From the IMG/VR virus record IMGVR_UViG_3300046786_000293, positions 96,001-160,000 of that record: a stretch of DNA of 64,000 nucleotides. One strand, given 5' to 3'. The stretch's first letter is position 1; each line of letters starts with the position of its first letter. The notes under the pieces were generated by a model. The model was not told where the DNA came from and did no database searches. It saw only the letters and a program-made list of their open reading frames with translations. The position numbers and the translations under genes are program-made. Shown here piece by piece: positions 26,184 to 28,854 of this stretch. This DNA is from a virus. Taxonomy: Duplodnaviria; Caudoviricetes.

Positions 26184-26260
26184 TGGCTCCCCGAGCTGGG
26201 CTCGAACCAGCGACACCTTGATTAACAGTCAAGTGCTTCTACCAACTGAGCTATCAGGGA
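26184..26260 (-). tRNA. tRNA-Asn(GTT), second copy
   Basis: Cloverleaf with CCA. Confidence 0.9.
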
Positions 26261-26314: not shown

Positions 26315-26530
26315 TTATTTGATTTTTTTCAAATAGTCTCTACCAATTAGACCAGCTTCAATTTCTTCTAAGGCTGCAACGATCGGTGTGCTAGTTGTAG
26401 TAACCTTAGGTACTGCACCTTTACGCAGTTCACGAACACGTTGAGCTCCCACCAGGATCAAATCAAATCTGTTACCAATATTAGCAACACATTTGTCTGT
26501 GTCATTCATTACACGATTTTCTTTTTTCAT
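26315..26530 (-). CDS. rpoZ: RNA polymerase omega subunit homolog
   Basis: IGNRFDLILVGAQRVREL..G..P......ALEEIEAGLI matches the omega signature. Confidence 0.85.
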   Translation of the reverse strand: MKKENRVMNDTDKCVANIGNRFDLILVGAQRVRELRKGAVPKVTTTSTPIVAALEEIEAGLIGRDYLKKIK

Positions 26531-26581
26531 AACTGCCTTAAAATTGTATTATACTACCTATTGGTGGTTAGTGTCAAGTCT

Positions 26582-26825
26582 AACGCGGAGCCCGTCAGAA
26601 GGACCCGGCAATTTTCATCCAAAGGTATTCTAAAACACACTTGATCCGTACCCTCTATCTGTTAGGACTGCTCTCGGGATTAGTATGTTTTAGAATACCC
26701 TGCGTTGCCGCAGGATATGATAGGGTTGTACCCTACCCAGTAATTTATACTAGTGCGTTCTCGCCACACGTTCATCCTACTGTCCGCCCATTTGATACAT
26801 TTAACGCTGTATTCCGGCTCGCGTT
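26582..26825 (-). ncRNA. Uncharacterised ~245-nt structured RNA, nesting a family-2-like stem at 26624-26699
   Basis: AACGCG-AGCC/GGCU-CCGCGUU closing pairing; GCAA tetraloop hairpin; GGUAUUCUAAAACA/UGUUUUAGAAUACC stem. Confidence 0.5.
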
Positions 26826-26842
26826 GCCTATTCACGTTTGAG

Positions 26843-27004
26843 TTATGCTAGAGTCTTTGTTGCTAACTTTCTAAGTTGATTAGACTGAACTTTAGCACGT
26901 TCGAACTTTTCTGCTAATTTCTTTCGAAAGTCCGCATCTGTCAAAGTATACTCTGTAGTCCACCTAACTTCTCTCATTTGTTTTGCAATGTTTACTTTCT
27001 TCAT
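26843..27004 (-). CDS. Small basic protein (53 aa)
   Basis: MKKVNIAKQMREVRW...; RBS AAGGA. Confidence 0.55.
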   Translation of the reverse strand: MKKVNIAKQMREVRWTTEYTLTDADFRKKLAEKFERAKVQSNQLRKLATKTLA

Positions 27005-27019
27005 AATTCCTTTATATAA

Positions 27020-27056
27020 AAACAAAACCCCAGGGTGTTTAGTCCTGGGGTCCTTT
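27020..27056 (-). terminator. Intrinsic terminator of a putative attenuator
   Basis: ACCCCAGG/CCTGGGGT stem plus U-tract. Confidence 0.75.
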
Positions 27057-27071
27057 TGAAGTATTTTGAGA

Positions 27072-27230
27072 TTATACTCTGGGTATTTTCTCTGCTCCAA
27101 TGGACCCCGGGGCAATCCCCTCTGGTGTGCGATCATTACTTTGTAGACTAATCACAGACCAATAGGTGGGCATAAAGCCTCCCTGTTTGGCTATGCAATG
27201 TTGTGACGATAATGATCTAATGTTGTTCAT
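27072..27230 (-). CDS. Putative leader peptide (52 aa)
   Basis: MNNIRSLSSQHCIAKQGGFMPTYW...; lies between the promoter and the terminator. Confidence 0.5.
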   Translation of the reverse strand: MNNIRSLSSQHCIAKQGGFMPTYWSVISLQSNDRTPEGIAPGSIGAEKIPRV

Positions 27231-27240
27231 AACAGTTTCT

Positions 27241-27269
27241 ATTGTAATTTATTTATGCCTTGTTGTCAA
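27241..27269 (-). promoter_or_regulatory. Sigma70 promoter TTGACA-N17-TACAAT containing a TAAATA motif
   Basis: Near consensus. Confidence 0.75.
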
Positions 27270-27318: not shown

Positions 27319-28854
27319 TCAGCTACGGATGTTATCTTTTAACATTTTTAGTAATGCAGTTTTATACTCGTAGATGAACCATGGTTTTATTATATGTTCT
27401 ATTTCATGAAAGTCAAATGTTGGTTGAGTTGATTTCATCAACTCGGATAAATCAATTCCATAAGTCGACATGGCAAATGCAGTATGTGCTGGTAATTTAA
27501 AATTAGTAGCAGATGTCCGACTAATTCTATTAAATTCGTCTGCAATTTCTATTGCCTTTGCACTGTCCATGAATTCATTTTTCCAATTAAGGTCTGCTTG
27601 ATTATCCGGGGTCCCAGTGTCTATGTACCCGTACTGTTTATAATTTTTGTCAAATTCGCTAGAAAAATTACTATCGTATATTTTTGTAATTCGTAGACCA
27701 TTGAAAGCCCAAGAATCTAAAGGAATTTGGCTAGATAATAATTGCTCAAAGGTTTCTTGAATGTGTGTAAGTGATTCTTTTGGTAGCCCGACAATAAAAC
27801 TACCATGCAATGAAACTGAATCTCCGTAACGATGTTTAATAGTTTGTATAGTTTCTATTTGTTTTTTTCTATCGTACCCCTTACCAACAATACGACCCGT
27901 TTCTAAATTTAATGTTTCTATACCAAAATAAAAACCCCTAACACCAATAGCATATAGTAGATCAATGGTTTCTGGACGAGTACACAGAAGATCCAATCTG
28001 ATGTATGCCCAAAATTTTGGTTGGAACGGTAAGCGGTTTATCGCGCTTAAAATTAAATTTAATTTATCCGGGTGATCATTGAAAGTATCATCAACTATCA
28101 AATAATTTGTTACTCCAAATTTATTATAATTATCTAAAAGTTCTGTGTAAATGTTTTCAGCTGATTTTATGTAATCTAAATTAGACTTACCATTCATTGG
28201 ATAACTACAAAATTTGCATCTAAAAATACACCCTCGACCAATTTCAAGAGGTAAAGTTTTATGATTAACTACGTCGGTTTTTTCCCACACCATATCTTCT
28301 TTACTAAACTCGTAACCGGGAACCAATGATCCATCTATTACAATTTTACCATGAATATTTTTTATACTGTTTGACAATGCAGTTCCGTTGATCAAATGAT
28401 CAACAATGTTTACTATTGCGGCTTCACTGAAGCCTAAGCAAACGTAGTTTACGTTTTTATTAGAAATATTCTTGTTGGAAAGTTTATTGCCGCCGGCAAC
28501 CACTTTAATATTTTTTCCAATTTCATTAATGTATTCAAATATTTCACGCTCAAATTTCTCGCCTTGAGGGAACATGCCCGAGTGGGAGATAGGCATGCAT
28601 TCTGTTATATCTTCTTTAGAAGTTGTTTCGTTACTTTTAAAGAATGTTCTACTAAATCCTATTAGAACAGTTTTATCTGAAATTGCTACAGATAATAATT
28701 CTTTTAATTCACTTATGGTATATTCCGACAAATGCCCTACAACTAAACAACTATATCCGTTTTTTCTTAGTGCATGAGCACATTTAAATGCACCGATGCT
28801 TAAACTACTTACAATCTTATCTGTTACATCAGTGAATAATATTACGTTGTACAT
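27319..28854 (-). CDS. B12-binding-type radical SAM protein
   Basis: RGCIFRCKFC, DDTF, FGIETL, FIVGLP.E; N-terminal ..GG Rossmann-like segment. Confidence 0.8.
   Translation of the reverse strand: MYNVILFTDVTDKIVSSLSIGAFKCAHALRKNGYSCLVVGHLSEYTISELKELLSVAISDKTVLIGFSRTFFKSNETTSKEDITECMPISHSGMFPQGEKFEREIFEYINEIGKNIKVVAGGNKLSNKNISNKNVNYVCLGFSEAAIVNIVDHLINGTALSNSIKNIHGKIVIDGSLVPGYEFSKEDMVWEKTDVVNHKTLPLEIGRGCIFRCKFCSYPMNGKSNLDYIKSAENIYTELLDNYNKFGVTNYLIVDDTFNDHPDKLNLILSAINRLPFQPKFWAYIRLDLLCTRPETIDLLYAIGVRGFYFGIETLNLETGRIVGKGYDRKKQIETIQTIKHRYGDSVSLHGSFIVGLPKESLTHIQETFEQLLSSQIPLDSWAFNGLRITKIYDSNFSSEFDKNYKQYGYIDTGTPDNQADLNWKNEFMDSAKAIEIADEFNRISRTSATNFKLPAHTAFAMSTYGIDLSELMKSTQPTFDFHEIEHIIKPWFIYEYKTALLKMLKDNIRS

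Follow-up and report, generated by a model that had tools for sequence, protein, structure and literature searches.

Leader-peptide attenuation is the textbook form of control of amino-acid operons, and the regulation of transfer RNA (tRNA) genes in phages has, to our knowledge, hardly been studied. Here we describe a leader module on the minus strand of a 64,000-nt stretch of phage DNA (hereafter the window), which corresponds to bases 96001-160000 of the 338.5-kb uncultured virus record IMGVR_UViG_3300046786_000293, estimated to be 97% complete. The window carries 39 tRNA genes, all of them on the minus strand and together covering all 20 amino acids, and the module is flanked on one side by a radical-SAM gene (27319-28854) and on the other by the main tRNA array, which begins with a tRNA at 26260. 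It comprises a promoter, a short open reading frame (ORF1) and alternative antiterminator and terminator hairpins. Comparison of related sequences led us to propose that the module is likely to attenuate transcription under the control of the ribosome, with a leader peptide in which each of the 20 amino acids is sampled.

Of the published systems, the attenuator in the upstream ORF (uORF) of whiB7 (wblC) in mycobacteria and other Actinobacteria comes closest (Poulton et al., PMC10274678). As proposed here for the phage module, antiterminator and terminator structures come after a leader ORF, and stalling at many different codons results in read-through (PMC10274678). The uORF of Mycobacterium smegmatis whiB7 encodes every amino acid but Cys; whiB7 is activated by knock-down of many biosynthetic genes, tRNAs and synthetases, and removal of the Trp or His codons abolishes the response to the amino acid concerned (PMC10274678). 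However, whiB7 is a cellular system that regulates an antibiotic-tolerance transcription factor, whereas the phage module precedes RNA and tRNA genes. The content of the whiB7 uORF varies by species (that of Mycobacterium tuberculosis is without several amino acids) and is enriched in Ala, whereas all-20 peptides are found across the clusters of the phage family, and the two systems share no sequence similarity.

The classical leaders (trpL, hisL, leuL and pheL, the multivalent thrL and ilvL, and pheST) resemble the phage module in having a promoter, a short ORF, alternative hairpins, an intrinsic terminator and the regulated genes on one transcript. In both cases, a finished leader would favour the terminator and a stalled ribosome the antiterminator, and a hairpin within the leader could serve as a pause signal. 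On the other side, the classical leaders contain a run of a single codon, whereas the phage leader contains one or few of every amino acid. The phage module is also without the 1:2 pairing that sequesters the antiterminator strand, and its untranslated RNA should read through instead of being super-attenuated. Moreover, its stop codon is placed in the apical loop of the antiterminator, its leader is about three times longer, and it matches no Rfam leader family.

Two further systems are comparable in what they sense or supply. The trn operon of Anabaena sp. PCC 7120 likewise contains a supernumerary tRNA array that is switched on under impaired translation, but its control is exerted on the promoter, by direct repeats and the repressor TrcR, and the text of the papers describing it mentions neither an attenuator nor a leader peptide (PMC8421152; PMC10272220). 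T-box riboswitches, like the phage module, are cis-acting antiterminator/terminator switches that read the state of the tRNA pool, but a T-box binds one uncharged tRNA directly and has no ORF, whereas the phage module has a conserved frame, gives no match to RF00230 and shows no T-box or Stem I features. Full-text literature searches retrieved no paper on leader-peptide attenuation ahead of tRNA genes.

Layout and covariation of the RNA switch

The features of the module in the window are as follows.

27241..27269, minus strand: sigma70-type promoter, with TTGACA at 27269-27264, a 17-nt spacer and TACAAT at 27246-27241, matching the consensus at 11/12 positions
near 27234, minus strand: transcription start predicted from the promoter
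27072..27230, minus strand: ORF1, the leader ORF, with ATG at 27230 and TAA at 27074-27072 (52 codons plus stop)
27131..27217, minus strand: 5′ domain, a long hairpin within the coding region, with base GAUCAUUAU:AGUAAUGAUC and apex GGC-UUUAU-GCC at the Phe-Met codons
27217-27210 and 27138-27131, minus strand: upstream pairing segments GAUCAUUA and UAAUGAUC, respectively
27102..27108, minus strand: segment 2, GGGGUCC, the 5′ strand of the antiterminator base helix, inside ORF1
27047..27053, minus strand: GGACCCC, the 3′ strand of the antiterminator base helix
27047..27108, minus strand: antiterminator rod hairpin, with base GGGGUCC:GGACCCC, middle helix UUGGAG:CUUCAA and a variable apical stem
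27018..27050, minus strand: intrinsic terminator, with CCCCAGG at 27050-27044, a 9-nt loop, CCUGGGG at 27034-27028 and a U-tract, UUUUGUUUUU, at 27027-27018; the stem is G+C-rich and 7 bp long

The initial annotation had described a strong promoter, a 52-codon leader ORF and then an intrinsic terminator, and all three were recovered at their places on the minus strand. It had further proposed that GGGGUCC pairs with GGACCCC in an antiterminator exclusive of the terminator, which is borne out by covariation of this helix across 51 sequences (see below), and that another pair exists further upstream, which is indeed present as GAUCAUUA/UAAUGAUC. Both pairings are contained in the minimum free energy fold of the 217-nt RNA, whose stability gives z = −3.7 against dinucleotide shuffles. 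The bases CCCC (27050-27047) are common to the terminator and the antiterminator. A consensus terminator scan missed the terminator of the module, the loop limit of the scan being 8 nt and the actual loop 9 nt.

Homologues of the 52-aa translation of ORF1 were found in a large protein collection, and the alignment of these homologues was used as the query that afforded 28 IMG/VR loci and 60 metagenome loci. The anchor motif was present in 87 of the 88 loci, which collapsed to 62 unique modules of uncultured freshwater phages, and the family sequences formed 14 clusters at 65% identity. Nearly all related loci have a promoter of the form TTGACA-N17-TACAAT ahead of ORF1, either at −39 or at −66 to −90 relative to the ATG. 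Among GenBank phages (INPHARED), a search with the region matched tRNAs only, and neither the peptide by tblastn nor the module of one relative by blastn gave a match. Bacterial genomes yielded only two chance GFMPTYW strings in one G+C-rich Rubrivivax protein, which were rejected, and a search of the phage's own genome found no second copy of the module.

All 50 distinct 3′ domains were found to form one rod hairpin, composed of the 3′ part of ORF1 and the spacer that follows it, at about −23 kcal/mol, and the terminator hairpin amounts to −12 to −14 kcal/mol. The middle helix of the rod is GGAG:CUYC across the family, and its apical arm occurs in 27 different sequences. In an alignment of 51 sequences, 98.6% of the cells in the GGGGUCC:GGACCCC helix were paired, and three of its seven pairs had changed on both sides (for example, GGGUUC:GAACCC and GGGUCUU:AAGACCC). 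These values were reached by none of 500 shuffles, and sliding the 3′ partner by 1-3 columns reduced the pairing from 98.6% to 16-67%. Each of the three frames is used to read GGGGUCC (31, 16 and 10 of 57), and its conservation is therefore at the level of RNA, not of protein.

The terminator was paired in 96.1% of the cells of the same 51-sequence alignment, again with compensatory changes. In GGACCCC, the fourth C (alignment column 80) shows covariation with its partner in the antiterminator (G:C 38, A:U 10) and also with its partner in the terminator (C:G 38, U:A 6, U:G 7), which is how two selected, mutually exclusive helices would be expected to look. Taken at the level of sequence, these patterns argue that the RNA switch is real, and they support a selected element that is more than chance.

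Coding constraint and amino-acid content of the leader ORF

ORF1 is intact in all 62 unique modules, with 43-56 codons and always with a TAA stop, and its ATG is placed 18 codons ahead of the Phe codon in nearly all of them. The core A-x-x-x-GFMPTYW and a DR pair are invariant among the 51 distinct sequences, and the changes in the core are confined to synonymous third positions: Pro CCC/CCT/CCG/CCA, Arg CGT/CGC, Phe, Tyr and Ser. The intact frame, the invariant core and the synonymous-only core variation thus argue that ORF1 is conserved as coding sequence. The use of TAA in 62/62 leader ORFs, compared with 57% of long-ORF stops in the window, may reflect that UAA is read by both release factors, or else an RNA-level constraint of the A-rich apical loop. 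AlphaFold2 predicted no fold for the ORF1 peptide (mean predicted local distance difference test score, pLDDT, 58; predicted template modelling score, pTM, 0.14), and no family was found for it in Pfam or PHROGs.

The ATG lies ~3-4 nt past the predicted transcription start, and window ORF1 has no Shine-Dalgarno sequence. In distant clades (L051-L065 and similar), the promoter lies 66-90 nt upstream, and the 5′ untranslated region (UTR) contains a small hairpin and an A-rich stretch in which AAGGA occurs. The mRNA of the window's clade is almost leaderless, and the same leader is thus served by two initiation arrangements.

Per-sequence folds showed that the first ~100 nt of ORF1 form a long hairpin in almost every member, and in 15 diverse members this hairpin exceeded synonymous recodings in stability (mean z = −2.75). 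When the 5′ domain was aligned with MAFFT, RNAalifold recovered just the invariant apical hairpin and missed the long-range helices because their register shifts between clades. By analogy with the 1:2 hairpin of trp, the 5′ hairpin may be a pause or synchronising signal that lets the ribosome catch the polymerase.

The window ORF1 peptide contains all 20 amino acids in 52 codons. All 20 are likewise present in 44 of the 51 distinct peptides, and the other seven are without Cys only; all-20 members occur in 12 of the 14 clusters. As background, only 1.4% of 46-aa segments taken from the phage's own long ORFs hold all 20, with a mean of 16.8 kinds. The composition was further compared with a null in which the 13 columns conserved at 90% or more were held fixed and the rest redrawn in 2000 trials. 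The expected number of all-20 peptides was 10.6/51 with the pooled family composition and 2.7/51 with that of the phage proteome, with maxima of 20 and 10, respectively. The conserved columns supply just 12 kinds of amino acid, and across the members eight different alignment columns provide Cys and eight provide His, so that selection acts on their presence and not on their position. These results indicate that the all-20 composition is kept by selection.

The codons of the leader are diverse as well. Leader ORFs use 36.5 distinct codons per 47, compared with 28.0 ± 2.6 in the background, and 46 of 54 ORFs contain both codon boxes for each of Arg, Leu and Ser, compared with 9.6% of the background. 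The codons of window ORF1 engage 26 of the 31 anticodon species of the phage (background 21.7 ± 2.2, P = 0.036). The remark in the initial annotation that the leader has no single-amino-acid run stands, in that there is no codon run either, but was too weak for a peptide that holds all 20 amino acids. Selection for this composition adds weight to the annotation's guess that general translation is what the leader senses.

Ribosome position, proposed mechanism and alternative explanations

The first base of UAA falls between 3 nt before the apical loop of the antiterminator hairpin and the loop itself in 40 of the 50 distinct hairpins, and the UAA of the window (27074-27072) adjoins the loop. 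The distance from the end of GGGGUCC to the stop codon is 8-30 nt, mostly 15-17 nt, and the terminator stem starts at least 21 nt past the stop codon in the modules. It has been reported that a terminator can fold once 10-15 nt of RNA past the A site are free, and that termination is ~90% efficient when the terminator is placed 28 bp after a stop codon (PMC4824070). The distance between stop codon and terminator would therefore be permissive for folding of the terminator beside a terminating ribosome.

The window RNA was then folded under the constraint of a 29-nt ribosome footprint. With the footprint on the stop codon the terminator formed, and with the footprint at codon 10, 20, 30 or 36 the antiterminator formed. 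In the free window RNA, the antiterminator was favoured by 2.3 kcal/mol (−65.3 vs. −63.0 kcal/mol), and the RNA is thus predicted to be a bistable element. Judged by geometry and constrained folding alone, the position of the ribosome would decide which helix forms.

In the mechanism that we propose, transcription would start from the promoter at 27269, and the first ~210 nt would comprise ORF1, the antiterminator hairpin and the terminator. If a ribosome stalled for lack of a usable aminoacyl-tRNA anywhere up to about codon 38, or if translation failed altogether, the antiterminator would close once GGACCCC had been made, and the polymerase would read into the next ORF (ORF2) and a structured RNA of ~260 nt, and then into an rpoZ-like gene and the tRNA array. 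If the ribosome instead reached UAA at the tip of the hairpin, it would hold the 5′ strand of the hairpin open, GGACCCC would be free to pair with CCUGGGG, the terminator would form, and transcription would end after ~210 nt. With every amino acid and most isoacceptor classes represented in the leader, a delay in decoding at any codon would probably let transcription continue towards the downstream RNA and tRNA genes. We infer that ribosomes translate ORF1, that they are coupled to the polymerase, perhaps via a pause at the 5′ hairpin, and that the response runs in this direction.

Phage tRNAs counter host defences that cleave tRNA, which makes a logic of supply on demand plausible. The purpose of the attenuator would presumably be to raise the output of phage tRNAs and RNAs when decoding fails, for example after the action of host anticodon nucleases. 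Such a logic suits the cargo, which consists of ORF2, the structured RNA and tRNA genes that cover all amino acids, and the regulatory codons match the supply of the operon in generalised form, with all 20 amino acids in the leader and all 20 covered by the arrays and the 39 tRNA genes. A broader proposal, to which we give even chances, is that the module acts as a universal decoding gauge in large freshwater phages: a test gene of ~47 codons, kept by selection supplied with every amino acid and most isoacceptor classes, through which any shortage or destruction of tRNA raises the phage's own tRNA array and associated RNAs, as a homeostatic form of attenuation control. If true, an all-20 leader ahead of tRNA arrays would extend the attenuation principle to tRNA supply itself, and the module would represent a compact natural sensor of global decoding capacity and make the link from defence-induced tRNA damage to phage counter-measures open to testing. 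With at least 62 distinct modules and clear covariation, this large family offers a ready subject for reporter and in vitro work.

Several observations weigh against ribosome-operated attenuation by an all-20 leader. The initiation signals of ORF1 are weak, with a 5′ UTR of ~3-4 nt in the window and A-rich leaders with a poorly spaced AAGGA in the relatives. The two states of the RNA are nearly isoenergetic, and the default state rests on a kinetic argument. Coverage of the phage tRNA species by the window leader (26/31, P = 0.036) is just modestly above background, and the members of the family are related, so that counting members exaggerates how many events were independent (14 clusters at 65% identity). 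Two perfect promoters lie downstream of the module, and the tRNA array of the window is not dependent on read-through. The absolute invariance of GFMPTYW and the fixed third positions of GCC, GGC, ACC and GAT exceed what a codon sampler needs, and could reflect another role of the RNA or the peptide.

Three alternatives were considered, each of which covers part of the conservation; none explains both a switch that covaries regardless of frame and the all-20 composition. The terminated ~210-nt transcript could itself be the product, as a structured small RNA that acts in trans or binds a factor, possibly with a dual function like rnTrpL, the ORF being secondary. Attenuator RNAs with trans functions are known, and the fold of the whole RNA (z = −3.7), the advantage of the coding-region hairpin over synonymous recodings (mean z = −2.75) and the core codons whose third positions never vary would all suit such a product. 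However, the intact frame in 62/62 modules, the synonymous-only variation of the core and the all-20 composition would be left unexplained, and the RNA matches no Rfam family. We therefore regard it as an unlikely reading, and one that is compatible with attenuation and no replacement for it.

It is somewhat more doubtful still that ORF1 encodes an ordinary trans-acting small protein, the hairpin and terminator being merely a stable, somewhat leaky 3′ end of its mRNA. The GFMPTYW core and DR pair are invariant in the 51 distinct sequences, as would be expected of a functional protein, and the module has a promoter and a terminator of its own. Nevertheless, a plain terminator does not need a GGGGUCC that is kept in three frames and covaries with the terminator flank; one base covaries with two alternative partners; and the next gene follows 12-15 nt past the U-tract without a promoter, so that read-through is needed. 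A folded protein would not require that all 20 amino acids be kept by relocating His and Cys, and the peptide has neither a predicted fold nor a Pfam or PHROG family.

Finally, we consider it very improbable that GFMPTYW...DR acts from the exit tunnel as a nascent-peptide arrest sensor, which would stall the ribosome on a specific ligand or ribosome-targeting compound and so cause antitermination (cf. TnaC, SecM and the Erm leaders), for although strict peptide conservation is typical of arrest peptides and a ribosome stalled close to the DR(T)PE codons would only just leave GGGGUCC available for pairing, the W-DR and DR-stop spacings vary by several residues where arrest peptides need fixed distances to the peptidyl-transferase centre, and arrest gives no reason for the all-20 composition or the link to tRNA arrays.

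Genes and RNAs downstream of the terminator

The features that follow the terminator in the window are listed below.

26843..27004, minus strand: ORF2, 53 codons with a Shine-Dalgarno sequence, starting 13 nt past the U-tract; the first gene that needs read-through
26580..26842, minus strand: structured non-coding stretch of ~260 nt between ORF2 and the rpoZ promoter (fold z = −2.8)
26577-26548 and 26310-26282, minus strand: two perfect sigma70 promoters, flanking the rpoZ-like gene
26315-26530, minus strand: rpoZ-like gene with its own promoter at 26548-26577; its product resembles RNA polymerase omega (Pfam RNA_pol_Rpb6, E = 2.4e-12)

With regard to the targets of the switch, ribosome-operated attenuation would act first on ORF2. 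The gap between the terminator and ORF2 contains no promoter-like site and leaves no room for one, and ORF2 therefore requires read-through. A homologous ORF2 of 52-60 aa starts 9-25 nt past the terminator in most relatives. The ORF2 family has the motif LT-x-E(E/D)Q-x-x-KLI-x-x-K-x-ERA and a strong Shine-Dalgarno sequence. The ORF2 peptide is not of the all-20 kind, and neither Pfam nor PHROGs yielded a family for it.

The conserved ~260-nt RNA is the cargo on which the switch would act most directly. A long-range helix, AACGCGAGCC ... GGGCUCCGCGUU, closes this RNA, and AACGCGAGCC is also found as a motif in relatives. In several of them, for example L056, L058, L061 and L118, the RNA stands directly after the terminator and abuts the first tRNA. 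Rfam contained no family for the leader or for this downstream structured RNA when the window was searched at the gathering score, the region at E up to 10, and two relatives; the matches at the gathering score were tRNAs only, and the sub-threshold matches were at chance level. Transfer-messenger RNA, RNase P RNA, 6S RNA and GOLLD/ROOL were considered as the identity of the region and dropped, as neither Rfam nor ARAGORN supported them.

Across the family, the order is promoter and ORF1, terminator, ORF2 or directly a structured RNA, and then a same-strand tRNA array. The array starts 260-970 nt past the terminator in 26 of the 29 relatives examined, and where a tRNA is in reach, a promoter with at least 11/12 consensus matches is missing ahead of the first tRNA in about half of the relatives. 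The suggestion that the module heads a non-coding RNA/tRNA operon is supported for the family and qualified for the window, where two further promoters also feed the tRNAs. There, the switch would certainly gate ORF2 and the ~260-nt RNA, and would merely add to transcription of the tRNAs, because the two perfect promoters lie between.

Two neighbouring genes were also followed. The radical-SAM protein (511 aa, window 27319-28854, minus strand) is encoded directly upstream of the module; the gene was rejected as a member of the system, its relatives (~44% identity) being located on contigs without tRNAs or the module nearby, and its adjacency looks incidental. Relatives reached via the rpoZ-like gene were set aside as well, since they have only that gene and tRNAs in common with the window. 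The rpoZ-like gene itself stands directly upstream of the tRNA array and has homologues in other IMG/VR phages.

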